Shown here in pieces: positions 34,762 through 64,000 of a stretch of DNA of 64,000 nucleotides (positions within the stretch are counted from its first letter, which is position 1; each line of letters opens with the position of its first letter). The position numbers and the translations under genes are program-made. The stretch lies in assembly GCA_963702475.1 (NCBI GenBank), contig CAVPCT010000005.1, forward strand, positions 992,001-1,056,000, written 5' to 3'. The DNA comes from an uncultured Thermoleophilia bacterium (GTDB lineage: Bacteria > Actinomycetota > Thermoleophilia > UBA2241). The notes under the pieces were generated by a model. The model had not been told where the DNA came from. It worked only from the letters and a program-made list of their open reading frames with translations, and searched no databases.

Positions 34762-34763
34762 AA

Positions 34764-38905: not shown

Positions 38906-38968
38906 TGACATGTCGTGCAAGCCTTTGCACCCAGCCGCGGGCACTCGGCGCAACCAGAAGGGGTACCA

Positions 38969-40690: not shown

Positions 40691-42239
40691 TTAGACGGTG
40701 CGCACCAGTTCGCTGCGCAGGACCTTGCCGGCGGCGCTGCGCGGCAGGACGTCCCGGAAGTGGACGCCGCGCGGTATCTTGTAGGGGGCGAGGTACTCGC
40801 GGCAGTGGGCGAGGATGAGCTCCCGCGAGACGTCGACGCCCGGCGCGACGACCACGAACGCCTCGACCGCCTCGCCGAGCAGCTCGTCCGGCACGCCGGC
40901 GACACAGACCTCGGCCACGCCCGTCACCTCCGCGATCACGTCCTCGATCTCGCGCGGGCTGACGCGGTTGGCTCCCACCTTGATCATGTTCTTGATGCGG
41001 TCGACCAGGAAGATGAAGCCGTCATCGTCCTTGCGCCCGAGATCGCCCGTGTGCAGGCCGTCGGCCTTGAGCACGAGGGCGGTCTCCGCGGGGTCGTTCC
41101 AGTAGCCCTGCATGATGTTCTCGCCGGCGGCCACCAGCTCGCCGACTTCGCCCGGCGCGCACTCGCGGCCGTGCTCGTCGCGGATGGTCAGCGTGACGCC
41201 GGGGATCGGGATGCCGATGCTGCCGAGCTTCTCGCGCAGGCGTTCCGGCGGCACGTAGCTCAACCGCGCCGAGGCCTCGGTCTGCCCGTACATCACGAAC
41301 AGTCGTACGTGAGGAGGCAACTCGTCGAGGAGACGCCGCGTCAACGCCGCCGTCATGGCGCCGCCGGCCTGCGTGAGGTACCGCAGGTCCGGCCAGCCGC
41401 GACGCAGGAAGTCGGTCTTCGCCGCCAGGATCGCGTAGTTGGACGGTACGCCGGAGAAGCCGGAGACGCGCGACCGCTCGAGAGAGTCCACCACGGTCGA
41501 CGGATACGCGAAGCGGTTGTCGACGACCACGCGCCCACCCACCGCGAAGTGCGTGAGCAGGAGCGAGTTGCCGAAGCTGTAGTGGAACGGCAGCACGCTG
41601 AGGACACTGTCGTCCGCCGTCAGGTGCAGATAGGCCAGGATCTGCCGGGTGTTGGCGGCGAGATTCCGGTGCGTGAGCGTAGCTCCCCGGGGCAGGCCGG
41701 TGGAACCGCTGGTGTAGAGGATCGCGCAGAGGTCGTCGAGGCCGACGTCACTCGCCACGCGCGCCGGACTGGCCGACGCTAAGTCCTCAGCCCGCAGCAC
41801 CTGCACCCCCGCGGGCAACGCCCAGGCGGGGGCCACTCGGTCGATGATGACGAAGCGCAGATCGGGAGCGCCGTGGACGATCTCGGGCAGATCGTGCGAG
41901 ACGCGTCCGGCCATGGTCACCAGCCCGACCGCCCCGCTGTCGGCTCAGCAAAGCCCCATGGGTGCGCGCCATGTTGGCGCCGTTCAAGGCCACACAGCAG
42001 GCGCCGGCCTTCAGGATCCCGAAGAACCCCTCGACGTAGGCGCGGCCGTTGTCCGCGAGCAATCCCAAGCGGTCGCCCCGCGCGACGCCCAGCTCGCGCA
42101 GGCGGGCCGCGAGACGATTGGCGCCCGCCTCGATCTCACCGTAGGTCAGGACGACGTCGCCATGCTCCAACGCGGCGGCGTCGCCGCGTTGATCGGCGCT
42201 CTGCTCGAGCAGCGTGTGGACCAGTGCAAGGTCTTCCAT
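40691..42239 (-). CDS. AMP-forming acyl-CoA/acyl-ACP ligase (frameshift near 41940)
   Basis: LTYGEI..GANRLA, YTSGSTGLPRG, MYGQTEASARL, LHTGDLG, LPRSAAGKV. Confidence 0.9.
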
Positions 42240-42695
42240 GTGCCAGACCATCGTGCGTTGGCGTGAGACAGAATCACCGAGGCTGTGGCCCGGTGCCCGC
42301 TGACAGGCATCGTATCTCCTGCGCCCCAGCGATGGTAGCGGAGAGCAGCGGGCGTAGCCAAGAGAGCGAACGCGTTCCGGTGGACCTCCCGAGCCCGCCC
42401 TGGAAACTGGATCATCGAGGCGGGCATGTCCCGGGAGTCGATCACGCATGCATAAGGCAGCCGACTCGCGGCGACAGCGCCATTCGTCCCACGCACAGTC
42501 TGCGATGCTCGGCTTTGGCCCGGACGTCTGCGTCGCCGTTCCCAGCCGACATCGAGTGGCGTACACTGGCGATACCTGCGGAGCGCGGCTTATGGCGATC
42601 AGCCTCTGGCAGCGAGGGCGGGATCAGGTGAGGACGCGGTGCAGATGGAGCCAGCTTCCAGGCGAACAGGGCAACCTCTCAGCGGGAGGCCGGAA

Positions 42696-44277
42696 ATGCG
42701 TTGTGACAAGGAGAGGAATCGGCGTCGCACCAGGGGCATCGTCGGCGGCCTGGTCCTCGCGGTCAGCGTCCTCGGCTTCGCTGGCGTGCTCGCTCTCCCC
42801 GTGCCGGCGGGGGCGTCCGTCAACACCGGCTCCGCCGGCCACGCCGGTGAAACTCGTCTTCGTCCACCACTCCACCGGCGAGGCCTGGCTGGCGGACGCA
42901 CACGGCGGTCTCGGCATAGCGCTGCGCAATAACAACTACTTCGTCAGCGACACCAACTACGGCTGGGGTCCTGACGCGATCGGCGACACCACCGACATCG
43001 GCCACTGGTGGACCTGGTTCCGGGGCCCATCCTCGCCCACCTACCTCGCTGCCCTTTATGCGGAGAGCGGCCGGCACAGCCGCGGCTACTCCCGGCTCGA
43101 CAAGGACCCCGGCGGCCCCAACGAGATCATCATGTTCAAGAGCTGCTACCCGAACTCGAAGCTGAGCATGCCAGAATCGCCTGTGCCGGCCATAGCCGAC
43201 AATCCGCTCAAGGGCCGGGCCGTCGGCAGCAGCGCCTACACTGTCGCGAACGCCAAAGGCATCTACCTCGACCTCCTGCCCTACTTCGGCGCCCATCCCG
43301 AGAAGCTGTTCGTGGCCGTGGTCGCGCCGCCGGTCGCGTCTCCTGACACGCCCGGCGGCCGGGCGCTGGCCGACTGGCTCGTCGACCACTGGCTGCAGGA
43401 CTCCGGCTACACCGTGGGCAATGTGCTGGTCTTCGACTTCTACAACGTGCTGAGCAGCAAGACCGGCGGTAGCGCGAGTGACGTCGGCCTCGCAACGGGC
43501 AACCATCACCGCGTCTGGAACGGTGCCGTCCAGCACAAGACCGACGAGGGCGCCAACCGCCTCGCCTACCCGAGTGCCACCGGTGGCAGCCATCCCAACG
43601 CCGCAGGCGACCAGAAGGCGACAGCCGAGTTCGTACCGCTGCTCAACGCCGCCTACAACGCCTGGAAGGGTGAGCCGTCCCCGCCGCCCGTCACCACGGC
43701 CACGGGCTACGACGACGCATGGCACCGCAGCGCGGTGACAGTGAGCTTCTCAGCCGTGCCCGCCGTCGGCGGCCTCCCTGTCGCCTACACCGAGTACCGC
43801 CTCGACGGTGACGACTGGAAGCGCGGGAACTCGGTGGTCGTGACGGCCCCGGCCGACCACTCCGGCGACGGGCGGCACACCGTCTCCTATCGCTCCGCCG
43901 ACATCGGCGTGCCGCCCAGCATCGAGGACGCGCGGACCTGCACCGTCAGGATCGACACCACGGGGCCCTCGACGCGGGCGCTCGGCAAGGCCACGGTGAA
44001 GACGGGCACAGCAGTGACCGTGAGGTACCGGGTCGATGACGCTCTTCCCAGCGGCGTCGCACTAAGCCCCACTGCGACCGTGCAGATTGTCGTGCGCTCG
44101 GCTTCCCAGAGAGTCGTCAAGCGCCTGCGCCTCGGCGAGCAGGCGACGAACGTGCCGCTCTCGACAAGGTGGAACTGCACTCTGAGGAGGGGCAACTACC
44201 GTTTCTTCATCTACGCCACGGACGAGGCCGGAAACGCGCAGGAGAAGGTCGGCGTTGGCAGATTGACGGTGCGGTAG
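42696..44277 (+). CDS. Secreted HHSTG-motif SGNH-like protein with Ig-like and C-terminal beta domains (frameshift near 42830)
   Basis: Signal peptide in ORF 42639..42932; catalytic-like KLVFVHHSTG, MFKSCYP, FDFYNVL, GSHPNAAG in ORF 42448..44277. Confidence 0.7.
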
Positions 44278-44324
44278 GACTGACGACCGCGACCACTTCG
44301 TGGTCTACGTAGGTATCGCTCCAT

Positions 44325-44638
44325 GATGGCGAGACGGGCGCGAAAGCGCCCCGCCGTGAAGATGAGGCCGTTGTCACCTCTGATGACCGGCGGGCGGTCC
44401 GGGCGCAGCGTGCCGAAGCGGGCGAGCCGGGCCTCTTCGAGAGCGCGCTCAGCCTCGCGGGCGCGGCCGCGCAGGCTGAACTCCCAGCCGACGATCTCGC
44501 GGTCGTGGCAAGCACGACCGCGGCCTTGCGCTTCGCCGTCCAGCGCTGAACCTCGTCGGGGATGTCGCTCATCACTGCCACCTCCTCCCTACTCATGATG
44601 AGCACGTCGCCCTGGTGGCTTCAAGAATCAGGGGAGCA
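44325..44638 (-). mobile_element. Internally deleted IS3-family remnant
   Basis: End TGCTCCCCTGATTCTTGAAGCCA; OrfA start DEVQRWTAKRKAAVVL joined directly to rve-core fragment DREIVGWEFSLRGRAREAERALEEA...DNGLIFT. Confidence 0.75.
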
Positions 44639-44865
44639 GGATACGACGCACATGATCACGGTGTAGCGCGGAGAGCCTGCCAGAGACGTATCGGGGGCAG
44701 GGACTGATCAAGTCGAAAGGGGCCGCCTGAGAGCAGCCAACCCTGGCCCATCAAGGTCCTGGTCGCCCGGGCCGGGCCACCACAGATCCGCCGGGGGTGT
44801 GTCCTACCCCGTGAAGCTTTGACCTTAGTGCGCCCCCCTGTCACTCGCCATCGTTACGACGGCGG

Positions 44866-46444
44866 TCAAGCATGTGAGTCGTAGCGGTAGTGATCGTAGC
44901 CGTGTCGCCGCATGGCCTTGACTATCAGCACCAGGCCCAGCTTACGGCACGGCATCAGCGAGATCTGGTTCGCCGCTTCCTGGAGCAGCGGTCGCTTCGC
45001 ACGCGTGAGATCGACGAGGAAGACCATCCCGTCCACGCAACGGGCTATCGCCGCGGTGTCACCCACGGCCAGCAGAGCCGGCGCATCGACAATGACCGTA
45101 TCGAACTCCGCCTCAAGCTCGTCGATCACCGCGGCGAAACTCCTCGATGCGATGAGCTCCGCGGGATTCGGTGGCACGGGCCCGCTGGTGAGGATGGTCA
45201 GGGAACCATCACGGTTCGATGACGCGATGGCACCGCCCATCGCAGCGGACCTCGGGCCGACCGTTCGCGACGTCAAAGCGGCCTTGAGTTCTGTCCTGCC
45301 GGTGAGCACTGTGGACACGCCCGTCGAGTTGGGGAGTCTGAGGTGCCTGTGTACCTGCGGCCGTCGCAGGTCGCCATCGACGAGTACGACTCGGTTGCCG
45401 GCTTCAGCCAACGGCAAGGGCAAGGTTGCACACGGTAACGCTCTTGCCTTCATGCTGGAGGGCGCTTGTGATGAAGAGGGATCTTGACCGGCTGGTCGAC
45501 GTTGGCGAACTCCAGGCTTCCGCGCAGCTTCCGGATGGCTTCAGCTGATTGGTTCTGCGACCCATCCAGAACGAAGAGCATCTCGTCCTCCGAGGTGCCT
45601 GCCGGCATCTTCCGAATCTGACCCCACAAGGGCATGCCGAGGAGGGCAACAGCCTCTTCCTGGCTCCGCACACGCGTGTCGAACTGCGCAACGGTCAAGG
45701 CGATCACGATGCCGAGCACCAGGCCAGCCACCAAGCCCATCGCTGCGTTGCGGACCGGGCGCGGCGAAAACGGTGCGTAGGGCGCGGTAGCCGGGGCGAG
45801 GATGGTGAAGTTGCCCGTCGCCGTCGCTTCGAGGATCTGAAGATCCTGGAGGCGCTGCTGGAGAGTGAGATACTCAGGAGTCTGTCTCGACGCCTCGCTG
45901 GTGAACGTCTCCATGCTGCTCCTGACAACCTGCTCCGCCTGGCGCACGCGAGCCTGTTCTCGCGCCTTTCGGTAGGCAGTGAACGCCTTGGCGTACGCGT
46001 TGGCGGCACTTGCCGCCATCTCCGCACTGGGACTGACTGCCCTGATCGACACGGTGCTGATGCTGCTCGGGTCGGTCGAGGAGCTCGACTTGGCGCCGGA
46101 TACTGTTTCCACGCTGAAGCTGGCCACCGTCGCACCCCCCGAGAGAATCGCCTTTGCGTCGCGGACAAGCTCCGGGCTCGCGATCACGTCTGCGACACTG
46201 GCAAGCTCCGTCTGCCTCAGCGAAGTGTCGACGAAACGCGCAGAGAGCGGATCCGCCACGTTCAGCTGATTCTCGTAGAGAAGCTTGGCAGACGCCTCGT
46301 ACAGGGGCGTCTGCATGAAGGAGTACGCAAGAGCGAGTGCTGTCACTGCGGCCGTCACGAAGATGACGATCCATTTCTTCTGCCAGACGGCTCGCGCGTA
46401 GTCGCTCAAGGTCGGCTCTTGCCGCTGTTCGCCAAAGCAGTCAA
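44866..46444 (-). CDS. Wzc-type polysaccharide co-polymerase / tyrosine autokinase (several frameshifts near 45410-45490 and at the start)
   Basis: Wzz-like N-terminus PLYEASAKL, SPRPVRN, Walker A ITSALQHEGKS, DGDLRRP, SGPVPPNPAEL, C-terminal YDHYRYD. Confidence 0.88.
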
Positions 46445-46562
46445 GACACTCCTTCTCGTTCGCTACATCGTTCGCTACATCCTAGGGTGACCCGTCCCGT
46501 TCGGCAACGCGCGGCGGTCACTGCTCATACTCGGCGATCAAGTGGTCCACATATCGGCATCA

Positions 46563-47932
46563 TCACCGGCTTTCGCAAGGTCTCGAATGGAACGCAGAGG
46601 ACCTTGACGACGCTACCGTCACAACGCCCATCCACAGCGAGCGCAGGGTGCGGGCCCCTACAGCGCAGGGGTGCCTGCGGGAATCCGGCGGTCGAGCTCG
46701 ACACCTGATGTGGAGGGCTGGGGCACACCGGACTCTCTCGGCCAGCGCCGCATTCCGCGCAAGGATCAGTGCCACGGCGAGGATCAGCAGAACCACGTTG
46801 TTGGTGTTCAGCAGATTCGTGTTGAACAGACAGAACAGGAGATAGAAGGCCAGATACCCCAACATGACCGCACTCATAGGATCATGTCGCCGGTTCCGCC
46901 ACCCTATGCGTGCGGTAGCCGCCATGATGCCGGCAACCAGGGCGAATCCCACGATCCCCTGTTGCCCTAGCAGCTGCATGACCCAGTTGTGGGGCTCGAA
47001 GAAGTAGCGCACATCGACGAGATAGAGCGCCCACTCCACTGATAGTCACCCAGCGGGTTCGCCACGAAGTAGTCCCATGCGAGTCTCGGGCGGTCGACCC
47101 TGTCATAGGCGCTGCCGTCGGCGGTCGGATTCAGCATCGTGCGAAGCGAGTAGATGACGCTGTCTCGAGCCATCGGAGACAAGGTGAACAGCAGCAGGGT
47201 GGCGGACGCGGCGACCAGCACGATGATAGCCGTTCGCCTCCCCAGCCGACCGGAGTTCACGAGCAACGCGGGCACGGTGAAGAGCAGAGCGACGTATGCG
47301 GAGCGATGATTCGTGAGTGCCATCCCGAGCAGGCCCACCAAGGCCATGACATACGAAACTATCGTGGGACGCCGAAGGAAGAGCGACGTGAGAATCAGGA
47401 ACCCGAACAGCAAGGTGGCGCCGCCCCAGAGCTCTCGCAGGCGGAAGGTCTCCCCTTCGTTCCATCCAGTGATCCCGACGGTCGCGTACTTGTAGAACGC
47501 GAAGAGGGCCAGACAGACAGCCGCCACATTGACCCAAGTCACGATCCGCTGAGGGGACACATACTTCAGTCCGACCAGGTACACGAACGGGATGAGCACC
47601 AACACGACCCGGTTGGACAGCTGGCGCGCAACAGCGATGGGATCCAGTCCGTGGAAGATCACGGCAATCGGGAGGACCACCGCGATCTGGTAGGCGAAAT
47701 AGCCAAGCACCAGTGCAATCACCGTACGATTCGCCGAGGGAATTGGCTGCCCCTGCCGCAGGGTCGCTTCCCGCAGCAGCAGAACGACGGCTACCAGCAA
47801 GAGAAGGTCGGAGAGGTAGACGTTGATGGGGCCGATGCTGAATCCCATGATCGCACCCTCTGCGTTGACGGCGGTCGAGACGGCCGTGTACGCAACGAGC
47901 ACGAGAAGCACTATGCGAATCAGCATGGCCAC
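46563..47932 (-). CDS. O-antigen ligase/Wzy-type polymerase (frameshift near 47030; 3' end uncertain)
   Basis: Multi-TM; TNHRSAYV, DR..LAW...NPLG, PHNWVMQLLGQQGIVG. Confidence 0.8.
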
Positions 47933-48151
47933 GCTGAGATTGTAGCGGTTCCGAACAGCGGTTGGGGGTCGGCCTCCCGGGCGCGAGCGGCAGGCTGAGG
48001 CGTGAGCCAGCCACCGCTCGCGCGTCGTGCACGCTGGTCGCAACCGCCGTCGCTGGCCCTCACCGAGCCGTGTCTGGCAAGGGACGGAGCACGACGAACA
48101 GGGGCGGAGGTACCTCTCTCCGTCGCGAGTGACGCCTGGGGCTGCGCCTCG

Positions 48152-50901
48152 TTACGGGCGTATCACCGTGTTCGGGGTCACGATGTTGCCGGTTGCCCCA
48201 CCCCATCCGTTGTAGACACGCGGCGCTGCACCGAGGTACAGGGTGTTGCCGGTGAAGTTGTTGCCCGTCGAATCACTGCCGTTGAACTCCATGACGCCGT
48301 TGCCCGGCCAGTAGGCGGGAGAAGTCACCGTGGAAGTTGAAGGTGTTGCCGGTGATGGTGTTGTTGGCCTGGCAGAGGACGACGATGCCGCGTCCGGGGG
48401 AGATGCCGTTCTCCGAGGTGTCGAAGTCGAAGGTGTTGCCGGTGATGATGTAGCGCGCGTCGGTCCCCCAGCCGAAGTCGCTGTCGTGGACGGCCGCCTC
48501 AGTGCAGGCATGGAAATGGTTGTTGCGGATGATGACGTTTTTCGGCTGCTCCAGCTCGATGCCGTAGCCCCAGCGGGTGCTGCCGAGGTTCTGGCCTGCG
48601 CCGTGGAAGAGGCAGCCCTCGACGAGCACGCCGTCGCCCTGACCGGAGTAGCCGTAGCAGGCGAAGTCGAGCGTTTGGAGGTTGCTCGTCTCGAACTCGC
48701 AGCCGTGGAAGTGGACGTCCTTCCAGTGGGATGCTCGGATGCTCGTTCGTGGTCCAGACCTCGACCATCATGCGCTGCGCCCCGCTGGCGACGCCGTTGC
48801 TGACGCCGAAGTGGCAGCCGATGAAGTCGACCCCTTCGACGACGCCGCCCTGCGCATACACGGAGACGGTGTTCTCGTCGATGGCGTTGCCGGGATAGCT
48901 CGTACCGAGAGTCCGCTCGAACTCGCAGTCGGTGAAGGTGAGGTTGTAGACGTTGGAGCCTGACGAGCTGTAGCCACGCCCGATCATGACGGTAGGAGCA
49001 TCACGCTGCACCGTTGGATTGCCTCCGCCTCGGAAGTGACAACGGGTGAAGGAGGAGCCGCTGGAGTTGTCGGCGTTCGTGACCGCGCACAGACCCGCCG
49101 TCGCAGGGCCGATCTTCAGGTCGGTGAACTGGCAGTCGCTTTGGAAGTCGATGTGTCCCTGGAGCCAAGTCCCCGTCATCGACTCACCGACGAGCTTGGT
49201 GCCGTCGGGCACGGCCAGCGCCGAGGCGAGCTTGTAGGTACCCGCCGGAAAGTAGACGGCCGCTCCACGAGCAGCGGCGATAGCACTCTGGATATGAGGC
49301 ACGTCATCGGTAACGCCGTCGGCATGCGCACCGTAGTCCATGACATTGAACGTGCTGCCTACGGGCGCCGGCGTGGGCGTCACGCTCGGCGTGGGCGTCA
49401 CGCTCGGCGTGGGCGTCACGCTCGGCGTGGGCGTCACGCTCGGCGTGGGCGTCACGCTCGGCGTGGGCGTCACGCTCGGCGTGGGCGTCACGCTCGGCGT
49501 GGCGGTCGGTGTCACGGGCACCAGCCGTATCCAGGCCCAGCCGAAGACCGAGTAGCTGCCGCTCAGCAGGTCGGCGTCCTGTGCGTACAGTGAGAAGGTG
49601 CCGTCGCTGACGGTCACCGAGCCGAGGCGGTACTCGGTGTGCTCGGTCGCCCCGCCGCTGCCGCCGACGGTGTCGATGGAGTAGAGCTTCGTCGCACTCG
49701 CCGAGTAGCCCCAGTAGTAGCGCATGTTGCGCCCGGTCCTCTGGGTGTAGAGGTTGGCGTACACGTCGTAGGTGCCGTTGGCGAGGCCTGAGGTGAAGAA
49801 GCGCATCGCCGGCAGCGCGTATCTCTCGTATTCGTTCGCGCCCGCCAAGACCGTCGGGAAGGGGCGCCCGGCGGTGTAGAGGAACTCGGTCCAGCGACCG
49901 TCCGACAGGTTGATGGCGGAGGTGCTCGTGGTGGTCGCCAGCACGGGGCTCTGGTGGGCGTCGTCCCAACAGTTGACGGTGACAGAGGAGCCAGGTACCG
50001 CGGCGGTGGGCGTCGGGGTCGGGGTCGCTGCCGGGACGGGCGCAGGGGGCACCGTAGGCGTCGGCGAGGGGGTCCGCGTCGGCGTTGCTGACGGGGTGGG
50101 CGTCGCAGTCGGCGTCGGGGTCGGCGTTGCTGACGGGGTGGGCGTCGGGGTGGGCGTTGCTGGCGGGGTGGGCGTCGGTGCCGGAGCGGACGCCACCTCC
50201 CCGTTCACGGTGATCTCGTTGGCGGTGGCCCATGCCCAGGAGGGGGTCACGCCGAGGACCCGGATCCGCACGTAGCGCGCGCTGGCGATGAAGGCATCGG
50301 AGGTGGCCCCGCTGATCCTGTTGCCGCTGCGATCGACCACGGTGGTGAAGCTGTCGCCGTCGAGACTCGTCTCGATGCGGTAGCGGTATGTGCGCAACGC
50401 GCCGAACCAGGCCGTCCGGACGCCGTACACAGTCGTCGGGCCGCCGAGATCCACCTTCCACCATTGCGGATAGCCACTAGAACTTGCGGACCAGCGGGTG
50501 CTGGCCGAGCCGTCGTTGGCGAAGGACGCCGGAGAACCCGGCTCGGTGGTGCTCGCTGAGGCCGGCCGACCGATCGACACGGGCGCTCCGGGGATGTCGG
50601 TCTCGCCGTCCACCGTCGCCGTTCGGGCCGCGTCGACCCGCGTCAGGGCGACCGAGTGCTGCTGCCGCTTGACGACCCGATAGCATGGCACCCCGTCGAC
50701 CTTCACGTACTCCTCGTGGTGTCCGACCACGAGGGTGCGGCCGTAGCCCCTGACCACGTCGTAGGAGCGGGCGTGCTTGATGACCTTGTAGCGAAGGACC
50801 TTCGTGTGCGGAGCGGCGGACGACGCGGACGACGCGCAGACACCGGCGGCAAGGGACGTGAGCACGAGCAGTGCGACTGCGATGGCGAGTCTCCTGGACA
50901 T
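48152..50901 (-). CDS. Secreted modular protein: basic N-domain, F5/8 type C (discoidin), PT linker, CWDDAHQ domain, TPTPSV linker, pectin-lyase-like beta-helix (frameshifts near 48730 and 48310)
   Basis: ANDGSASTRWSA...WWKVDLG...ARYVRI; FNVMDYGAHADGVTDD...VYFPAGTY; C-terminal parts in ORFs 48273..48629 and 48152..48511 match the paralogue at 53147-54583. Confidence 0.82.
49370..49502. repeat. Perfect 18-bp tandem repeat x7 (encodes a TPTPSV linker)
   Basis: GGCGTGGGCGTCACGCTC seven times plus a partial unit. Confidence 0.97.
49517..49987 (-). repeat. Copy B of the 471-bp direct repeat
   Basis: See 26782-27252; offset 22,735 bp, same orientation. Confidence 0.95.
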
Positions 50902-51040
50902 CGTGACCCCTCCGAGAGGATGAACACCGGGGTCTCGTCGGTGCCTGCGGGGGCTTCATCTCGGCGATCGTGTCGCACCGACGCGACTCACTGGAGTTCT
51001 GTTGGTCGTAACCGCGAGCAGTCGACACTGCTCGCAGGTG

Positions 51041-51068
51041 GCATCGGCGGAGCGAGGGGTTTCTTGAG
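51041..51068 (-). promoter_or_regulatory. Putative sigma-28 (FliA/WhiG)-type promoter
   Basis: Minus strand CTCAAG-N14-GCCGATGC about 140 bp upstream of ATG 50901. Confidence 0.6.
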
Positions 51069-51171
51069 CGCCTAGACGAGTATTTGTCGTCAATGTGGGC
51101 AACATGCCTCTCTATTGAGGACCAGCAGCGGCCGAGCGTGACCCTCTCCAACAGACATGACATCAAGGGGA

Positions 51172-51520
51172 CGAGAGAGCCCCCGAAGGATCCGCAGCAT
51201 GGCAAGCAGGGGCATGGACGACGCGACGGCGGCCATTCCGAGTACGAAGCCGGGTCGTCGACCTCTGCCGCGGCAGCGACAAGTCGATGGCAGAGGTCAG
51301 CCGCGACCTCGACCTGACCGAGTCCCATGTGCGTCGCTGAGTGGCCCAGGCGAAGCTCGACGCAGGACGCCCGGAGAGCCTCACGACGGACGCGCGGGAG
51401 GAGCTGACCCGTTTGCACGATGAGGACGGGGTCCTGTGCGAGGAGCGCGACACCCTCTGGGGTGCGACGACTCTTCTGGCGAGGGAGAGCCGCTCGACGC
51501 CAAGATACGCGAGCTGGCGA
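51172..51520 (+). mobile_element. Decayed IS3-family OrfA fragment
   Basis: SDKSMAEVSRDLDLTESHVRR*VAQAKLDAG...LTTDAREELTRL...LCEERDTL, with stop and indels. Confidence 0.75.
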
Positions 51521-51688: not shown

Positions 51689-52890
51689 CTACTCCCCATC
51701 GCGGTCGACTGCCGGCCGGCGGTCGCCCCTCGGCGAGTCCTGCACAGGTGAATCCGGCGCAAGACGATGTCCGGCCCAACGGCGCAGCGCCGCCCGCGCT
51801 GGGAGCTCAACGAGTCTGTAGCCGAGAACGGCGCCGATTGCGACGGCCGCAAGCCAGACTGCCGCTACCGCCACCTTGGTTCCCACCCCCGCGGCGACGA
51901 ATGCGGCCGGGTCGAGAACCTTCACCATGAACAAGATGACGACGCCGTGAGTGACGTAGAGCGAGTACGACAGCGCGCCACCGACGAGCATGGCACGCGT
52001 AGAGAGGACGCGACACAGGCTACCGCGCGAATAGGCGGCGCCCAGCGTGAGCGCCGCAAACAGCGGGGCGGCCCAGAATGTGGCAACGCCGGCGAGCGAG
52101 AAGGGAAACACCATCGAGGGAAGTGGCCCAGCGCCAGAAGGCAGAGCCCGGTGAGGATCAGGAGCGCGCTCGTTGCCACCACCCGTGAGGACCAGCGCCA
52201 GTGCGGCACAGCCCAGAAGAAGCGGTACAGGAGGCAGCCGGCGGTGAAGTCGCAGATCACCCGCACGATTCGAGGGAGGTCGCCGAGAGGGGCGATCGAC
52301 AGGGCCAGCAGCATGACAGCCATGACGAGTGCGGCCAAGACCAGCGCTGTAGCCGGCCTGCGCACTCTGCCGACCGCCAGCGCGAAGAGCGGGAAGGCAA
52401 GGTACATGCCGCAGAGAGCACTGATCGCCCAGGTGGGTATGATGACCGACGGGACGCCGAGCCAGGCTTGGATGAGCAGGAAGTTCGCCACAATGACGAG
52501 GGGTTGGAGAAGGCCCCTCTGCCAGGGCCCGCCCGGCTCGGCGATGAAGATGGTCGCCGCGTAGAGCGCAAGCAGGCACGAGAAGTAGAGCGGGTAGATG
52601 CGAGAGAAGCGGTTCCAGAGAAAGAGTCGGTATGACGGCTCGAGTGGGGCGTGAGAACCGGCTGGCGTATCCGTAGCACAGGATGAATCCGCTGAGGATG
52701 ATGAAGAAGTCAACGCCGAGATAGCCCGAAGCGGTCACGGTCTCGACGAGAGAGTGCCAACGAGACGGTGGAACGAGGACCAGGAGCACGGAATCCAGGT
52801 GATACAGCGCAACCCATATGGCTGCGATCCCCGGAGGCCATTCAGCGGCAGAATGACGTCCGGACGCTTCGGGAGAAGAGGGTCCGCCAT
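51689..52890 (-). CDS. Acyltransferase family 3 (OafA-like) membrane O-acyltransferase (multiple frameshifts)
   Basis: LNGLRG..AAIWVALYH, GYLGVDFFIILSGFIL, RFSRIYPLY, GALSYSLYVTH, YRLVELP. Confidence 0.85.
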
Positions 52891-53146
52891 GTGCTCATCC
52901 TAACGTTGTTCCATGCCGCGTAATTGACAAGATCGATCCACCTCAGCTCCAGCAGCACGACAGGAGACGAGCCCCTGGCCCAACGAGCCAACGACGTGGG
53001 CGATTCTGATAGTCTTGCTCGCGGTGACTCTAGGGCATCCGAAGCGGCCGTCTTCGCCGGGAGGGGCGGCACACCCGCAGCGCCCTCGCGGGTCAGAGCA
53101 GCGGCGAAAGGATTGGCCTTGTCAGGCACCAGCCAAGGAGGTCGCC

Positions 53147-54583
53147 GTGTTTAGGATGAGCAGCGTCGCGGTCCTGCTGCTTGCAGCCGTGCTGGCCGCA
53201 TTGAGCCTCCCGGCGACCCCCGCGTACTCCGCTACAACCGCCTCCAAAGCCCTGCGGTTCGAAGTCGTGAAGCGCACGACGACGCATGTCATCGTCGAGC
53301 GCGGCTCTGTCCGACTCACGGTTGGATCCAGCAGCAGTTACGTTTCGGTGCATGGAGTGAGGCGCTACCGTGTGATCGAGCGCGCCAGGACCCACCATAT
53401 GCTCATGCCGGTCGTCAACGTCGTCGCTTACGGCGCAAGGCGTGACGGCAGAACCGACGACACGGCGGCGATAGCGAGGGCCATGCGCGCCGCCGCAAGT
53501 GCAGCGAAGGGCGTCTACCTGCCCGCGGGAACGTACCGCGTGAGCTCGATCACGATGCCGTCTGGACTCGCTGTCTTCGGCGCGGGCATGGACCGGGCTT
53601 GGCTCAGGGGCCATCTCGCCTTCGGCAGCAATCAGCTCATCAGCGACCTCAGGATCGGCGACGCCGGCAAGTCGGCGGTCCACAACAGGGCGGGTGCTGC
53701 TTGGAGCGTCTTCGAGCGTGTCCACTTCCGCGGCGGCGGCGGCGCTGGCTGGCACGGGCCGGTGATGTTGCTGGGCGGGAGCAAGTCCTGCTCCAACATC
53801 ACCTTCAGGCGTTGTGAGGTAGAACGCAACGTCGGCATCGAGGACTCCTCCTTCAGCAACGGCTACAACGACATCTCGGTCTACGAGTCCAGAGGCGGCC
53901 ACGTCTCCGACATCACGTTCGATGGCTGCCACATCGGCGTCACGAACGGTGTCGCCACCGGCTCGCCACGCATGGGGCTGGAGTGCTGGACGGCCCCCGG
54001 CTCCGGCATCGGCTGGCGCAACATCACCGTGCGCGGCTGCGTCTTCGAGGCGACCGCCATCCACCAACTCGACTTCGCCTGCTACGGCCACTCCGGTCAG
54101 GCCACCGGCGTCATGGTCGAGGACTGCACCTTCAAGGGCGGAGGCCTCGACATGAAGAGCACCCTCTGGGGCTACAGCATCTGTCTGGAGTGGCCGTTCG
54201 ATGTGGTCATTCGCAACAACCACTTCCAGCGCTGCTCTGAGGCGGCCATCTACAATGCCAACTTCGGCCAGTCGTACGACACCCGCTGGATCATCACCGG
54301 CAACACCTTCGATTTCGACACGGCCGAATACGGCATCACCGCCCGTCGCGGCATCGTGGTCATCTCCAGCGCGAACAACATCATCACCGGCAACACCTTC
54401 ACCTGGCATGGCTCGTTCTCCGGCTGGCCCACCAATGGGTGCGTGGAGTTCGCAGGCGCCGACGCGACCGGCAACACTGTCTCCGGGAACATCTTTAACA
54501 TCAGCCAGACACAGGAGCTCTCCAACGAGTGGGACGGGGCGATCGGCAACACTGTCTCCGGGAACACGGTGATACGCCAGTAG
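53147..54583 (+). CDS. Secreted pectin-lyase-like right-handed beta-helix protein
   Basis: AAGGAGG RBS, signal peptide, VNVVAYGARRDGRTDDTAAI...VYLPAGTY, repeated I(T/S)GNTF coils; intact. Confidence 0.88.
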   Translation: MFRMSSVAVLLLAAVLAALSLPATPAYSATTASKALRFEVVKRTTTHVIVERGSVRLTVGSSSSYVSVHGVRRYRVIERARTHHMLMPVVNVVAYGARRDGRTDDTAAIARAMRAAASAAKGVYLPAGTYRVSSITMPSGLAVFGAGMDRAWLRGHLAFGSNQLISDLRIGDAGKSAVHNRAGAAWSVFERVHFRGGGGAGWHGPVMLLGGSKSCSNITFRRCEVERNVGIEDSSFSNGYNDISVYESRGGHVSDITFDGCHIGVTNGVATGSPRMGLECWTAPGSGIGWRNITVRGCVFEATAIHQLDFACYGHSGQATGVMVEDCTFKGGGLDMKSTLWGYSICLEWPFDVVIRNNHFQRCSEAAIYNANFGQSYDTRWIITGNTFDFDTAEYGITARRGIVVISSANNIITGNTFTWHGSFSGWPTNGCVEFAGADATGNTVSGNIFNISQTQELSNEWDGAIGNTVSGNTVIRQ

Positions 54584-54764
54584 CGACACACGACCTCGGG
54601 CGTCATGGTCGACGAGGGATACGATCGCCCAGCGGGCTGAGGCAGCACGCAACCCCACGCCGGAATCACCAGGACGTCCTGAATCCTCGACGGGCGCTGA
54701 CCTATCGCCGCCGAGTGTGCCCGATGTGCCGGTCTTCAGCCTCGACTTGCGATAGGCTTGCACC

Positions 54765-55760: not shown

Positions 55761-55767
55761 CAGCCAG

Positions 55768-57308: not shown

Positions 57309-57309
57309 C

Positions 57310-57546
57310 GAGTCCTCGGCCCGGCGGGCGGCCTCAATGCGGCGATGGCCGCAGGAGAGGTCGCCCCGCTCGGACTCGACGACCTGTCCGAGGCTCTCGC
57401 GCGGGGGCAGAGCGAATGTCGCGAAGGGGCGAAGATCGCCACGTCGTGGCCATTCGAAGTGGGCACTTCTCCAGGGCAAGGACATGGACACAGTCGCCAC
57501 CCCGCGGGTAGCAGAAGGAGTTGACGAGGAGAACCCGCGCAGACAT
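57310..57546 (-). pseudogene. Truncated GT4 glycosyltransferase (first ~40 codons only)
   Basis: MSARVLLVNSFCYPRGGDCVHVLALEK../..GHDVAIFA; ATG coupled to the upstream stop (TGATG); remainder missing. Confidence 0.65.
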
Positions 57547-58622
57547 CAGAAGGCAGCGACTTCGCGATACACGTCCAGGAGATCAGCCAGCATCCGCTCG
57601 GTACTGAACTGCTCCATCAGGCGTCGCCTGCCGGCTACACCCATGCGATGGGCGACTTCGGGATTCTCAGCGAGTCCCCGCAGACGCTCGACGAGAAGAC
57701 CGCTGCTGCCGGCGTCGATCAAGTAGCCCGTTTCGCCGTCGAGGACGAGCTCGGGGTTTCCTCCCCCCCGTGTGCAGATGACGGGCAAGCCGCAAGCCAT
57801 GTACTCCATGAGAGCGTTCGAACAGCCCTCGCGGTGCTCTCGCTCGTCGGTCATGAGCACTCCGATGTCCGCTTCCCGGATCGCGGGCAGGGCTTCGGGA
57901 CCAGGATCGATGAACGTGGTCACGCCGCGCTCGGTCAGGTCGCGCGCCTCAGAGAGCAGCCGCTGCCTGTCGGGTCCATATCCGACGAGCACGAACCGCC
58001 AGCGCTGTCGGTCATTGGCGTCCAGGTTCCTTGCGGCACGGATCACGGTCGAGAAGTCCTTCTGCGGGGTCATGCGACCTGTCATGACCACCACGGTCGC
58101 AGAGTCGTGTCGCTCGGGCTTCGCCTCACAGAGTGCCAGTCGCTCCGGATCGAAGCCGTTGTACACGACTCGTCCCTTGGCCGCAGGGACGCCATAGGCA
58201 AGAAGCCCCGCCATGCTGTTCGCGATGACGCGCTGTGACAGGGTCATGCACAGCCGTCGCATCCCGGGGCGATGCGGCTCGACGAAGCCGGCGCGAATGG
58301 TACCGTCGATCACAGGGATCCTCAGCACGGCGCACAACGGCAGAGCCGCAGATGAGGCCATCCAATCCCACGAGTGCACGACGTCCGGGCGCCAGTCCCA
58401 CAGAAGGCGCCACAGGTCCCAGGCCGGGCGCACGTCCATGCGAGCCGCACGCGGCCTGATGTACACGCGATGCCCCTGAGCCGCGATCACGTCGGCGAAT
58501 GGCCCTCCGGCCATGGTCCACACGCGACGTTCCCATTCAGCCGGCAGGTACTTCGTCGTCAGCGCAAGCTGACGCTCTGCCCCTCCGATGCCCAGGTCCT
58601 CCTTCAGGAACAACACCTTCAC
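57546..58622 (-). CDS. GT4 glycosyltransferase
   Basis: GGAERQL, VVYNG, GRMTPQKD, EGCSNALMEYMACGLPVI, GGNPELV. Confidence 0.95.
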   Translation of the reverse strand: MKVLFLKEDLGIGGAERQLALTTKYLPAEWERRVWTMAGGPFADVIAAQGHRVYIRPRAARMDVRPAWDLWRLLWDWRPDVVHSWDWMASSAALPLCAVLRIPVIDGTIRAGFVEPHRPGMRRLCMTLSQRVIANSMAGLLAYGVPAAKGRVVYNGFDPERLALCEAKPERHDSATVVVMTGRMTPQKDFSTVIRAARNLDANDRQRWRFVLVGYGPDRQRLLSEARDLTERGVTTFIDPGPEALPAIREADIGVLMTDEREHREGCSNALMEYMACGLPVICTRGGGNPELVLDGETGYLIDAGSSGLLVERLRGLAENPEVAHRMGVAGRRRLMEQFSTERMLADLLDVYREVAAF

Positions 58623-58751
58623 CTGGGCCTCGCCTCGTCAGGTTCGAGAGCCGCTTGAGAGGCGTGGCGCCCCCGGCCCCAACGCCGGCGCGGCGGTACT
58701 CTCTTCGGCGAATCATTGTCCGTGGAGGCGGCTTCCATCCTGCGGCGGAGT

Positions 58752-60251
58752 CTATACCAGGCGGCGCGCGGGCCCGATGGCCGCTCGCAGCACGTCGCGA
58801 GGCGCCAGCCCCGGCTTGTCGCTCTTGATGAACCGGCAGCACATGACCACTTCGGGCAGCGAGAGACGAATCGGAGTCGGCGGGAAGTCGTCGGAGTGCC
58901 AAACGCGCGGATCTGACAAGGCCGAGGCGTAGGAGACCTCGGAGATCGTGTAGCGATACTTACCCGAGGCCGCGGGTTCGATCCGGTCGCAGTACTCGAA
59001 GTCCACACGACATCCGTCTCCCATGACTGCCCGCACTCCGTCGACGATCTGGCGCTCCGCATCGCCGGGTTGATCCGAACAGCGGACGATACGGACGAGG
59101 ATGCTGCGTAGTCCTTCTGAATGAACTGGAAACGCGATACCCAATCACGAAAGAAGAGGAGATGCGTGAAGTAGCCCCCGTTGATCACGTTCCGTCCCGC
59201 AATCTGAAGGCGTCAACAGTCCTGCCCGTGACTCGCTGCAGCACGCGGGCAGCTTCTCCCTGCCATCCGGTTCCCGCAGGAGCAAGAGCGCCCCGATCGC
59301 CGATGCGGTAGCGGAGAAGGGGCATCGCGTAGTTCGTCAGGAGCGTCACGACCAATTCGCCTTCTATCCCGTCCGGCACGGGATTACCCGCATCGTCGAG
59401 GACCTCGATGTGCACGCCCCAAGGAGCTACCCACAGGCCGTCGCACTGAGGGATCTCACAGGCCATGTCGCCGACCTCGCGCGACCCGTACCGATTGAAC
59501 ACACGACAGCCGAAGACACGCTCGATCGTCTCTCGCATGAAGGGGTAGAGCGTGCCTGCCGACGTCATCACGGCGCGCTGAGGACGGACGGAGATGCCTT
59601 CACGTTCGGCGAAGGCAGCGACTTCGTACGCCGCCTGGGCATAGGACAAGAGAAGGTGAGGTGGTCGCCTGTTGAGCATCTCGATCAGATCGACCATGAC
59701 CTCTCTCGTCATCCTGAACGCGTTGACGGTCGTCGTGTTGGAGATCTGGGAGCGGATCCAGGCTCCCGCGCCTTGGCCGTTCTGAAGGATCTCTCGCTCG
59801 TCGCCCCAGAGGCGGATCTCGGGTTGCCCGAAGTCGCGACCGGCGAGGTGAGAGACAGGAGAGTAATGGCTCCCATGCGCGCCTCATAGGCGGAATCCTG
59901 AACCAGGCGCACAGGCATGCCCGTCGACCCGCCCGAGGTATTGAAGTACCAGTTCCGGGACTCAATGTCGGCGGATCGGAGACGGGAGAAGTCGCGTCGA
60001 ATGATTTCCTTCGTGAGCAGCGGCATCTGTCCGAGTGTCTCGAATGGGTCCGCCAGTGGACCACTTGGAATGAGATCCGCGTAGTACGGGACGTTGGCGC
60101 GCGCATGCTCCAGAAGGCGCCGCAGCTCGGAGACGGTCGTATCCACAGGGATTCCTTCTTCGAACTGCCGAAGATACTCGTCATAGAACGGGTACATCGA
60201 GTCGCCCCTGAGCGCACGCCAGACACGGTGAATGGACTGCCTAGGGTTCAT
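58752..60251 (-). CDS. Phenylacetate-CoA ligase-like (CapK-like) adenylate-forming enzyme (several frameshifts)
   Basis: VPYY, PLLTKE, TSGGSTG, YGSREVG, AMPLLRYRIGD, VTGR, ASGKYRY. Confidence 0.85.
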
Positions 60252-60425
60252 GCTCTCCCACAACCCCTCGCCTGCCAGTCGTTCTTGGGCCAGCATTCTG
60301 CAGGCGGAGAGCGTAGCACAGCGAGGACGATGGGCGTCGTCACCCTCTCAACGGCACGCCGGGCTCGCCGCTGGGCGAGGCGATGATCCACGGCGGGCCG
60401 CGGCTGGAGCAAGACCCCTTCTCCG

Positions 60426-61746
60426 CTATGCGGGAGGGATCTCGTCCTTCTTCAGACTGATTCCGCGGGTGGCTGAGGGCGAGTCGGATCTGCCGACGTC
60501 CGCCATGAAGGCGGCGAGTCGCCGGCACTGCGACACGACTTCGAACTCCCGTCGCGCCGTCTCGCGGCCTCGCGCTCCGACCTCGCGTGCCGCCGACGGG
60601 TCGGCGAACATCTCGGCCAGCCGGGCGGCGAAGGCTGGCGTGTCGTCCGGAGGGACGAGGTAGCCGTCCACGCCATCGCGCAAGTACAGCGGGATGTCGC
60701 CCGTCGCCGTGACCACGACCGGCTTCGCAGTCGCCAGGTACTCCCCGAGCTTCGTCGGAAACCCAGCCGTCGAGAAGAGCCCACTGGCTCTGGGCAGCGC
60801 GAAGGCAGTGGGCTTCTCCCAGGAGACCCGGCAACTCGGCCCGCTCGACTCTGCCCGTGAACTCCACTCGCTCGCCCAAGCCCATATCCGCGGCACGGGC
60901 CCGGAACCTGTCCAATGCGCGCGAATCGCTGCTCCCACCGATGATCCTCAGGCTCCACTGCGGGAATCGTGCCGCGACCTCGCCAAAGGCGTCGAGCAGG
61001 CAGTCGACTTCTCCCGGGTGGTCGAGGTGCCCGACGTAACAGAGGAGGTCCCGCCGAGATGCGTCGTCCGCCGGCGACAGGTCGAACTCGTCCAGGTCGA
61101 CGAGGATCGGGATACGGATGACCCGCGCTCCCCGGCGAACGCGTGCGAGGAAGTACTCCTCAAGACAGGTCGAGATCACGATGACCCCATCCACGAGCCG
61201 GAAGACGGTCTTCGCGTAGACCTGCGCCCATAGCCTCGTCAGGGTGGTGTCCGGCGCATACACGAAAGGATACTCGCTCTTCTCGAGCACACACGCCGAA
61301 CCCGCGAGCCTGCACACCGCGACTGTCATGATGATCCAAAGCGAAGGGGTCCCGCCGAACAGGATCACGTTCGCAGGGCGCTGGCCGAGCGTGCCTCGCA
61401 CCAGTCGCGCGAACCGAAGCGCCGAACGTACGTCACGCAGACGGCGGCGCGTGAACGTGGCTGCCCGATATGGACTGCCGCTCGAGTAGGTGAAAGGAAT
61501 ACCCCGATACAGGCCGTCGGCCTGACGGTTCTTCGCACCTTCGGCGCTGCGCTCGCTCCATCGCAGGCACACGACTCCGACCTCCCATCCGGCGGCGCGC
61601 AGCCCCTTGGCGTACGCATGGATGCGCGCCGCCGCGCCCGCCCCATTGGGGAAGCCGAATGCGCCGGCGATAAGGAGTCTCCGGCGGTCTCTCCGTTCGA
61701 CCGACCTGCTGTGTGATGCTCGACGCTGCACGGCGTCATGATACAT
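60426..61746 (-). CDS. GT4 glycosyltransferase (frameshift near 60810)
   Basis: FPNGAGAAARI, IPILVD, AGFPTKLGEYLATAKPVVVTATGDIP. Confidence 0.88.
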
Positions 61747-62071
61747 GCGCACCGTAGGTGAGTCCCGTGACGGGCTTACCGCACGAGGATGTCCCCAGGG
61801 TCACTGTCGGTGTCCGGTCCTGCCGTCGGAGGACGGCGAGGGGTCCCGGGGCAGTGGACTCAGGGAGAGCGCGGTCGGCCAGGCCGAGGCGGTCGTTGGT
61901 CCGCGAGCCGTCGGAGCGACTGGCCGCCGTGCAGCTGTGCATCTCCGACGCCCACGTGGGTCTGAACCGCGTCTCTACATGCTCGGCTGTCCCTGTCCAA
62001 CGGCTGCAGCGTCCTCGTCGTGAGAACGAATGTGGCGAATGGCCGCGCTCGAGGCCGGCACGTCGTTGAAT

Positions 62072-62655
62072 CTAGTCGCTGGTCTCGTGCCGGTCGTTCT
62101 GGCGGAACCGCTTGGGAACCGACCCCCGTAGAGGCGTACGCATCAGATAGGCTTTGGGGTCGCGGCGGTACTCCTCTTCATCGAAATCGGGGGTCGCCGC
62201 GAGCGACCACTCCGCGTACTGCTGAACGGTCATCACGGGCTCGGCTGGGTTGCCGGCGGCAAGGACACCCGGGGGAATGCTCCGTGTGACGACCGAGCCT
62301 GCAGCAATCACACAGTCCGGTCCTATGGTCACCCCCGGGAGGATGATGACTCCCCACCCGATGACGCAGTTGTCTCGAATGTCGATTCGGCCGAACTTGT
62401 GCACTTTCCCGTACCGCTCCGGATCGAGAGTCTGGAATACCTGGATGCCGCCGTCATGGGTGATCATCGCAACGCGGGCGGCGAAGCTCACATTGCGCCC
62501 GATGCTGATCAGAAAGGGTTCGGAGCCGAAACTCCGGGAGGCCTGAGAAGCGCAGTCGTCGCCGATGACGGCCCCGGCTCGGCGAGCGCGCCGGATGCCC
62601 AGGCGAAGACGCCATTCGCGCAGCTGAGCCGTGCTTGAACGAAGACGTTGGGCAT
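62072..62655 (-). CDS. Hexapeptide-repeat (LbH) O-acyltransferase
   Basis: FGSEPFLISIGRNV, ITHDGG, IDIRDNCVIG...ILPGVTIG...AGSVVT...GNPA; start approximate (probable indels). Confidence 0.85.
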
Positions 62656-62977
62656 GCGATCCCCGTGCCTGACGAAGGACCGCGTGCTGTGCGCGTGACC
62701 CGGCGATCTGCGCAGAACTCATGACCAGCATCATTCCAGCGTGCCACACCGTGTATCCTCGCCGACGTGCGAACCACATCGACGATGCCGCCTCGAAGAT
62801 GGTCAGGGGTTGGGAAACGCTCCAGTCCATTGACTCACAGGATACAGCGCCGGCACGACTCGTCGACCGCCGCGCGACTGGCACATCGCTGGAATCCGAC
62901 TATGCTCCTCAAGGTAGACTGTCCGCATTGTCGAGACATGCGGAGAACCATCGACACGGAAGGCGCGAAGGACCACT

Positions 62978-63244
62978 TTGGAGACATACGAAGCTGTTGC
63001 AGCCAAGATCCGCGACTACCTCTCGCGGAACTTCCTGTTCAGCGACCACGGGTTCGAGTACGACGATGATGCGTCGTTCCTGGAACTGGGCATCATCGAC
63101 TCCTTCGGCTTCATGGAGCTACTCCAGTGGGTACAGGAGGGGTTCAGCATCTCCGTGGCCGATGATGAACTCGTTCCCGACAACTTCGATTCGATCCGCA
63201 AGCTGAGCTCGTTCATCCTCGGCAAGAAGAGCGGCGGCGCCTGA
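62978..63244 (+). CDS. Acyl carrier protein
   Basis: SFLELGIIDSFG phosphopantetheine Ser motif, DDELVPDNFDSI; acidic, 88 aa. Confidence 0.93.
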   Translation: METYEAVAAKIRDYLSRNFLFSDHGFEYDDDASFLELGIIDSFGFMELLQWVQEGFSISVADDELVPDNFDSIRKLSSFILGKKSGGA

Positions 63245-63349
63245 GAGGCCACCGATGCTTGTTCGCCGGTACCGCCGCGCGTCTTTCGCGGAGTCGCGCT
63301 GACGCGACAACGATGTCCTCGGCAGGGTCACAAGCCCGGTCTAGTGGCC

Positions 63350-64000
63350 ATGAGAGTCCGGCAGGAGCTCCTTCTCATTCTCGGCTTGGCAGTCGGGCTT
63401 GTGTCTCGACTGGCCGGATGACTCTCGGGGACGACGGTCAAGCCAATCAGGAGGTGGTGCCTCGATGAAGATCGTGTTTCTTCACCACAGCACCGGAGAA
63501 GTGGTGTGGGTTGGCACTACGTCCAAGGTGAACTCCAAGGTCTTCGGCAAGAGCGCCGTGAAGAGCTGGATGAACACCTACAACAAGAAGAACAACACGA
63601 GCTACGAGATCGAGGAGATGTTCTTCCCGACGACGAAGCAGGGCTACCCTTGGGCCAACTACCCGTATGACTACTACAACATCTGGGTGAAGCATGCCGG
63701 CGACGCACCCTACCGGGGCGAGCCTACGCTCGAGATGCTGACGAAGCAGCACGACGTCATCGTGTGGAAGCACTGCTACCCGGTCGGGCACATCCTCCCA
63801 GACACCGGGACCCCCAACGTCGACTCTGAGGAGAAGCGTCTCGAGAACTACAAGCTGCAGTACGCGGAGCTCCGGGACAAGATGCTCTCCTTCCCTGACA
63901 CGAAGTTCATCGTCTGGACCGGCGCCGCGTTGACCGAAGCGACGACCTCGCCGGAAGAGGCGCAGCGCACCCGGGAGTTCTTCGACTGGGTCAAGACGGA
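63350..64000 (+). CDS. Second HHSTG-motif SGNH-like protein, probable lipoprotein (runs off window; 1-bp insertion at 63421)
   Basis: From ATG 63465: MKIVFLHHSTG...YPWANYPYDYYNIW...WKHCYP...LENYKLQY...KFIVWT. Removing A63421 joins MRVRQELLLILGLAVGLVSRLAGC in frame. Confidence 0.75.

Follow-up and report, generated by a model that had tools for sequence, protein, structure and literature searches.

An acyl carrier protein-based gene cassette with a predicted SGNH-fold lipoprotein in a polysaccharide locus of an uncultured Thermoleophilia bacterium

Introduction

A four-gene module (SMb20649-52) on pSymB of Sinorhizobium meliloti, in an operon reportedly described by Ramos-Vega and colleagues in 2009, has been unexplained since its description. 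It comprises asnB, an acyl carrier protein (ACP) gene (SMb20651), an AMP-forming ligase gene (SMb20650), and a nadE-like gene (record CP140937.1). The accessible text of one study (PMC7232532) reports that SMb20650 is cotranscribed with SMb20651, that it acylates this ACP in E. coli, and that it is no substitute for FadD. The same four genes occur in a polysaccharide locus of an uncultured Thermoleophilia bacterium, which we analyzed in a stretch of 64,000 nucleotides (hereafter, the window; G000:C5:992001-1056000, where G000 is this genome, assembly GCA_963702475.1, and C5 its contig CAVPCT010000005.1) and in an overlapping downstream region (L001, C5:1054001-1074000). Whereas no HH2 or LbH gene was seen within 12 kb of the rhizobial copies, the genes here are set in a polysaccharide island together with HH2, a predicted lipoprotein with an HHSTG motif, and an LbH acyltransferase. 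We propose that this cassette probably decorates a sugar polymer of the cell surface with an unusual acyl group. Judged by pocket motifs, two ligase chemistries can be told apart within the module on the basis of this locus; the ligase subtype and the HH2 family are the new parts, and an SGNH-fold family of >4000 sequences thereby becomes attached to one ligase type.

The Dlt pathway (DltX/A/B/C/D) and MBOAT-SGNH pairs (PatAB, AlgI-type) have in common with this locus an adenylating enzyme, a carrier, and an exported SGNH-fold protein, and Tyr-motif MBOATs occur in some Bacteroidales versions of the cassette. Unlike Dlt, the present locus has no linked MBOAT, a ligase that lacks the amino-binding Asp, and two amidotransferase-type enzymes in its core. 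No DltA model was found among the 25 best NCBIfam matches of the window ligase, and DltC models scored 21 and 17.5 bits with the window ACP (cut-offs of 68 and 52). The cassette is partly Dlt-like in its use of an activator and a carrier, and it is not a Dlt member. The ligase and amidotransferase of PEP-CTERM/XrtA exopolysaccharide (EPS) loci (TIGR03098, TIGR03108) are top or near-top NCBIfam matches and share the polysaccharide setting. However, scores fell below the cut-offs on frameshifted pieces (for the ligase, whose best NCBIfam model is TIGR03098, 319 bits on the C-terminal and 41 bits on the other of two pieces, cut-off 592; for the amidotransferase, 380 vs 817), and the NadE-like partner and the Thermoleophilia-related actinobacterial host are differences.

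A four-gene core

The best explanation of the functional unit is a core of ligase, ACP, AsnB, and NadE-like enzyme, a version of a widespread four-gene module that would serve as a mobile glycan-tailoring cassette, with HH2 and LbH as accessory parts. The module-type ligase of the 'ARL' subtype (40691-42239, minus strand; PF00501 and PF13193; PFHYSFG and MYGQTEASARLS) has one frameshift near 41900. At a distance of 20.7 kb lies the stand-alone ACP (62978-63244, plus strand; LGIIDSF; PF00550 above cut-off), the two genes pointing away from each other. Beyond the window end, on the plus strand and both frameshifted, are an AsnB-type amidotransferase (L001 2250-4240; TIGR01536 at 447 bits, above cut-off; N-terminal Cys and SGGLDS) and a NadE-like PRK00876-type enzyme (L001 4237-5234; NF002048 is the best model for both pieces). 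Each of the four S. meliloti pSymB genes has its best G000 match in this locus (one-way best hits), with identities of 41% for the ACP, 38% for the ligase (256 vs 152 bits), 49-55% for AsnB, and 37-55% for NadE.

Comparison with relatives revealed the same neighborhood. G001, G028, and G064/G732 all have the genes in the order ACP-HH2-AsnB-NadE. The ligase comes immediately after NadE in G001 and G022 and 5 kb farther on in G028; the four core genes are contiguous in G001 but not in G000. Because ligases 89-94% identical to the window ligase lie 3' of NadE in three relatives of the same genus, the window ligase is a displaced module member. Just to its left, two near-identical IS982-family transposase copies, one of them truncated (37639-40371, plus strand; NF033520 matches below cut-off), form direct repeats spaced about 2129 nt, an arrangement consistent with rearrangement. 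An earlier sequence-only reading of the window had paired the ligase with the ACP across this distance, and both the S. meliloti matches and the position of the ligase in relatives bear this out.

The window also encodes a separate housekeeping NAD synthetase (NadE; 10694-11416, plus strand; TIGR00552 at 245 bits, above cut-off), which is a weaker match of the S. meliloti module NadE. The NadE-like gene of the module is therefore an extra copy and unlikely to be the housekeeping enzyme, and in many genomes 'NAD synthase' is probably the wrong annotation for the module gene. The NadE-like clade goes undiscussed in the accessible portion of PMC3376133.

A query with the NadE-like protein retrieved 116 plasmid records, mostly rhizobial. 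In four annotated regions ACP, ligase, and NadE stand together, with AsnB annotated in three and detected by profile in the fourth. For an unbiased sample of the core, 23 loci were chosen by the NadE-like gene alone (L101-L123; L124, without the other genes, was excluded): 22 of them carry the module ligase, and most have ACP and AsnB within 9.5 kb. Four Bacteroidales loci (L106, L107, L114, L117) have a divergent Bac_transf protein directly 3' of the module ligase. A literature search, whose coverage lacked most subscription journals and supplements and in which HHSTG was not a search term, returned no paper describing the function of the module.

HH2, a predicted SGNH-fold lipoprotein

HH2 (63350-64000 and a further 217 bases beyond the window end, plus strand; HHSTG...NYPYDY...KHCYP...D/NxHP) has 4034 homologues. 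Together with HH1, a second HHSTG protein in the window, it constitutes, on the evidence of predicted models, an SGNH-fold family without an established name; the HHSTG domain of neither protein matched Pfam or NCBIfam. The HH2 model (predicted local distance difference test score, 93.9) gave a best fold match with Z 14.5 and a root-mean-square deviation (rmsd) of 3.0 over 173 aligned residues. The fold matches listed were almost all SGNH/GDSL proteins, mostly acetyl esterases (Foldseek E 8e-5), and a PDB search with the HH2 sequence profile yielded one match, weak and partial. The SGNH-like character that the sequence-only reading had ascribed to the HHSTG proteins is thus recovered in both predicted models. 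In common with SGNH/GDSL esterases and O-acetyltransferase domains (BT3161, CE3, Ape1, OatA-C, PatB; Z 12-14.5), HH2 has an N-terminal Ser and a C-terminal His. Unlike these references, with which identity is at most 16%, HHSTG stands for GDS, and KHCxP or KSCxPN occupies the place where GxND is expected (by sequence comparison only). Ser9 and His215 are each present in 119 of 120 homologues, and the residue two before the His is Asp in 87 and Asn in 32.

The export signals of both HHSTG proteins sit one frameshift out of register. Close full-length HH2 homologues are lipoproteins with LxAGC, and a lipobox pattern occurs in 42 of the 120 homologues, 80 of which are long enough to include a signal.

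Further secreted proteins accompany HH2 elsewhere. In the Ignavibacteria loci L050 and L057, up to about eight secreted proteins that cluster with the HHSTG family are arrayed around HH2. A third secreted family (IDHxHTD...HTSHGSQ/RRSHGSQ; L024, L037, L070, L074, L088:16556-17731) is often arrayed beside HH2 and gave no score with the HH1 and HH2 profiles. HH2 adjoins a NadE-like gene in a Thermoplasmatota archaeon (L082), and window-like HH2 cassettes occur in Methylococcaceae and Eubacteriales metagenome-assembled genomes (L005, L006), which suggests wide transfer or misbinning.

HH2 follows the core at the genome level. Among 301 Bacteroidales genomes (an even draw), the NadE-like gene is present in 19 and full-length HH2 in 14 (one of them the centre genome), all 14 belonging to the 19; another six have only weaker HH matches, five of these outside the NadE-like set. 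Among 251 genomes of the bacterium's own class, HH2 was found in four, all among the 15 with NadE-like, and five proteobacterial module genomes had no HH2. As HH2 lies within 9.5 kb in only 6 of the 19 Bacteroidales NadE-like loci (L106-L124), the link is one of genomes rather than of neighborhoods. Likewise, AsnB or NadE-like falls inside 26 of 80 HH2 loci, whereas at genome level 51 of the 80 HH2 genomes contain NadE-like and five more contain ACP and AsnB (55 of the 80 genomes searched).

Two ligase pocket types

The S. meliloti ligase has the VinN signature: its AFDYG motif retains the Asp and its TECKR loop is short, a combination that points to beta-linked aspartate as its probable cargo. 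In the window ligase and most Bacteroidales ligases, Ser or Cys instead takes the place of the amino-binding Asp, and the loop is of full length with a conserved Arg (TEA[ST]ARL); in the window the motifs are FHYSFG and TEASARL, with Ser at the Asp position, and neither the VinN-type Asp nor the one-residue-short loop is found. The VinN reference pocket has K330/R331 in the loop, as given in the available text of PMC11253843, and ARL ligases keep an Arg there. Because the Asp is replaced by Ser or Cys and the loop Arg is kept, we infer that ARL ligases may load an amino-free, dicarboxylate-like acid. The sequence-only reading had proposed a non-acetyl acyl or aminoacyl group; a cargo that is neither acetyl nor alpha-aminoacyl fits this pocket. 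As a precedent for a dicarboxylate on an ACP, and not as a tested homology, the stand-alone enzyme AmcH loads 2-oxoglutarate on the ACP AmcB (PMC10698177, in the part accessible). AmcB is also the top NCBIfam match of the window ACP, below cut-off.

The presence of HH2 follows these pocket types, with HH2 in 17 of 21 genomes that have an ARL ligase and in one of 16 that have short-loop ligases only.

Candidate transferases and genes outside the module

The LbH acyltransferase (62072-about 62674, minus strand; THDG subfamily, Hexapep), divergent from the ACP, is judged by sequence the best candidate transferase. Acyl-ACP serves as the donor for the LbH enzymes LpxA and LpxD. Scanning of the 80 HH2 loci revealed LbH of the window subfamily in 18 (by a motif/score rule), an MBOAT in 16, and both in none; in L003, L004, and L048, as in the window, LbH is divergent from the ACP. 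Most HH2-linked MBOATs end in FxYxxF-like motifs, a motif type whose role is treated in the accessible text of PMC12148441.

These MBOATs bear on a Dlt/AlgI-like relay, in which AT3 or an unlinked MBOAT would carry ACP-bound cargo across the membrane and HH2 would be the outer transferase that attaches it to the polymer. It accords with the predicted export of HH2 as an SGNH lipoprotein in which Ser, His, and Asp/Asn are conserved, with the 16 loci that hold an MBOAT nearby, and with L069, L076, and L078, where a single strand carries NadE-ligase-MBOAT-HH2-ACP-AsnB uninterrupted by any further SGNH gene. However, PF03062 has only four matches in G000, on contigs C1, C2, and C4 and none on C5, and the loci fetched from G001, G028, G022, and G064 showed no MBOAT. 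Many of the linked MBOATs lie next to a ~310-aa partner of their own, and a profile comparison of this protein with HH2 detected no similarity. Other MBOATs of G000 have their own SGNH/DUF459 partners, one also its own ACP and ligase, and HH2 persists in loci with LbH and without MBOAT. We consider such a relay unlikely here; Bacteroidales loci with an MBOAT are a better match for it than this genome is.

The membrane acyltransferase AT3 (about 51692-52890, minus strand; PF01757; several frameshifts) was rejected as the membrane step because it is not conserved among the fetched loci: tblastn found no match in any of them besides the window. The CapK/PaaK/VpsH-like adenylating enzyme (about 58930-60251, minus strand; NF045666 and PaaK models, both below cut-off; frameshifted) was set aside as a second ACP loader, considering its presence in 3 of 80 HH2 loci and its analogy to VpsH. 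In Vibrio cholerae, VpsH, the nearest studied analogue, is likewise a PaaK-like enzyme of an EPS locus, a likeness drawn without direct sequence comparison; it differs in that genetic evidence has it adding glycine to a uronic acid on a lipid-linked intermediate, and a carrier protein goes unmentioned in the available text (PMC13463779). By this analogy, the CapK-like gene likely encodes a separate, ACP-independent, uronamide-forming step.

HH1 (42696-44277, plus strand) is predicted to be a secreted modular protein and is a distant paralogue of HH2 (profile match of 98.9%, E 2e-17), with a fold match of Z 11.5 and rmsd 2.9 over 162 aligned residues for its predicted model. At the catalytic-Asp position the window protein has Gly, whereas 128 of 136 aligned sequences have Asp. 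HH1 forms part of larger secreted proteins, as one of their domains (median length, 569 aa). Four relatives that carry the module lack it, and it has a module-type ligase nearby in only one of 79 metagenome loci (31 of them at least 8 kb long). We rejected it as a module partner on account of these two results, and it probably stands outside the module. The one link seen between HH1 and the module is on an archaeal-looking metagenome contig (L190, 2708-8846), where two HH1 genes enclose an ACP, an ARL-type ligase, and an SGGxDS PP-loop protein of a different kind.

The sequence-only reading had joined seven genes (ligase, HH1, AT3, CapK-like, LbH, ACP, and HH2) into a single Dlt-analogous relay. 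All seven are present and interspersed with Wzx/Wzy-type genes. Nevertheless, AT3, CapK-like, and HH1 are not conserved partners and a linked membrane transferase is missing, so these parts are not one Dlt-like relay; the linkage of HHSTG proteins to ACP and ligase genes stands for HH2 and falls for HH1. Its observation that the window lacks an MBOAT extends to the surroundings of the locus. Inspection of the sequence past 64 kb, which it had advised, produced AsnB just beyond the window end and no MBOAT, and the single phosphopantetheinyl transferase lies elsewhere (C3:469240).

Two further MBOAT regions were noted in this genome. A separate Dlt-like locus (G000:C2:208301-214000; L094 10301-15864) has an ACP, an AMP ligase whose pocket is unusual (PPYFTSG, TEVSGRL), and an MBOAT without the C-terminal FxYxxF motif that is flanked by two SGNH-looking genes (by eye), near LPG-synthase-TM and PMT genes. 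Two tandem, PatAB-like MBOAT + DUF459/SGNH units (G000:C1:183900-191800; L095) have MBOATs that end in FLYFQF and FLYFKF.

Proposed pathway and its alternatives

Joining these parts, we propose a model of ACP loading, amidation, cytoplasmic transfer, and editing outside the cell, to which, as a whole, we give slightly less than an even chance. The ligase would adenylate a small amino-free acid that bears one more anionic group (dicarboxylate, keto-dicarboxylate, or hydroxy-dicarboxylate) and load it onto the ACP. AsnB would then amidate the free carboxylate in a glutamine-dependent step, and the NadE-like enzyme would form a second ATP-dependent amide, for which either the cargo or a uronic acid would be the target. 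In the cytoplasm and ahead of flipping, LbH, or possibly the GNAT-like protein, would transfer the group from the ACP to a sugar linked to a nucleotide or lipid, with an FxYxxF-type MBOAT in the place of LbH in some Bacteroidales. Outside the membrane, HH2 may act as an esterase or transacylase on the decorated polymer, and AT3, CapK-like, and HH1 would act independently of the cassette.

Several observations weigh against this model. Its putative substrate and acceptor are deduced from motifs, and the association of HH2 with ARL ligases has exceptions in both directions (HH2 with a short-loop ligase in L006 and G371; an ARL ligase without HH2 in G617 and G577). No NadE-like gene was found in 24 of the 80 HH2 genomes, which mostly form a separate branch without an N-terminal insert, and the LbH and MBOAT sets follow the clades of a quick tree (which omits L048, L053, and L068). 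As the genomes are related and these sets follow clades, the co-occurrence counts are inflated and not independent, and Fisher values for them, which take no account of relatedness, are not read as probabilities. The top NCBIfam matches of the window LbH are acetyl-CoA sugar acetyltransferases. Polysaccharide neighbors are lacking at 10 of the 23 sampled NadE-like loci and around the core in S. meliloti, M. ciceri, and Rhizobium ACO-34A; the same holds for several Thermoleophilia.

The resemblance of LbH to known acetyltransferases, the predominance of acetyl esterases among the structural neighbors of HH2, and an HH2-LbH pair that is often far from the core would also fit co-inherited but chemically separate parts. 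LbH would then be an acetyl-CoA acetyltransferase and HH2 an acetyl esterase of the same glycan, with AsnB and NadE amidating uronic acids and little role for the ACP. Such an arrangement leaves unexplained the near-constant company of ACP and ligase with NadE-like and the tracking of ligase pocket type by HH2, and it seems to us as unlikely as the relay; if the cargo is acetyl-like or the parts are independent, the finding becomes an ordinary mosaic EPS island.

Alternatively, the product of the core may be an acyl-amide that serves as a small metabolite or as the head group of a lipid and has nothing to do with the Wzx/Wzy polymer, polysaccharide islands being no more than the site of insertion. 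The stand-alone rhizobial copies and the Thermoleophilia cores without polysaccharide neighbors agree with such a product, as do the patchy presence of the core (4 of 61 genomes sampled), the insertion sequence (IS) elements, and the lower GC content of the region (0.71 over the first 28 kb of the window and 0.65 in the remainder). On the other hand, the stand-alone copies carry the other, short-loop ligase type, 13 of the 23 unbiased loci adjoin polysaccharide genes (119 of 161 candidate open reading frames scanned), and a polymer better suits an exported SGNH partner. We regard a non-glycan product as quite improbable.

The model of ACP-loaded, amidated cargo names alternative transferases and describes a small soluble system (ligase, ACP, AsnB, NadE-like, LbH, and HH2) with which to look for a substituent of surface glycans, possibly a new one, in environmental bacteria that have received little study. 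The bolder claim, that the ARL/HH2 version is an undescribed glycan decoration across Bacteroidota, Ignavibacteria, and Thermoleophilia, is conceivable though rather doubtful; in it, two amidotransferases would build an ACP-tethered, amide-capped dicarboxyl group, LbH or a Tyr-shuttle MBOAT would interchangeably deliver it, and HH2 would install or remove it at the surface.

Locus layout and frame changes

Wzz, Wzc-like, Wzy_C-like, Wzx, and GT4 genes are interspersed among the genes from ligase to HH2. ACP and HH2, on the plus strand, are divergent from the block of Wzx, glycosyltransferase, CapK, and LbH genes. The plus-strand order, which continues past the window end, is ACP, HH2, AsnB, NadE-like, a GNAT-like gene, a HILFCMVDHFEPG-motif gene, sugar epimerases, and WecB, after which a priming glycosyltransferase lies on the minus strand. 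The GNAT-like gene (GNAT_C/NAT_N-like; L001 5378-6399, plus strand) was found only in G000 and G028; its identity is no more than a lead, as Atlas features scored 0.97 but recognition was low. Directly 3' of it, the conserved gene with the HILFCMVDHFEPG motif (L001 6390-7545, plus strand; no Pfam or NCBIfam match) is 90% identical in G028.

Frame changes affect each of the ligase, AsnB, NadE-like, CapK, GT4, AT3, HH1, and HH2 genes. Because they are scattered over the region and their sites in G000 differ from those in relatives, we infer long-read indel error; true pseudogenes are not favored as the cause, since the breaks hit most genes and differ between relatives.

Elsewhere in the window, two inverted paralogous genes for secreted pectate-lyase-like beta-helix proteins (48121-50901 and 53015-54614) are 75% alike over 404 nt, and one of the two has F5/8C domains and PT repeats. 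An Arn-like block on the minus strand (32177-36657) consists of a GT2 gene, a GNAT-containing gene, a dehydratase, a DegT aminotransferase, and EamA.

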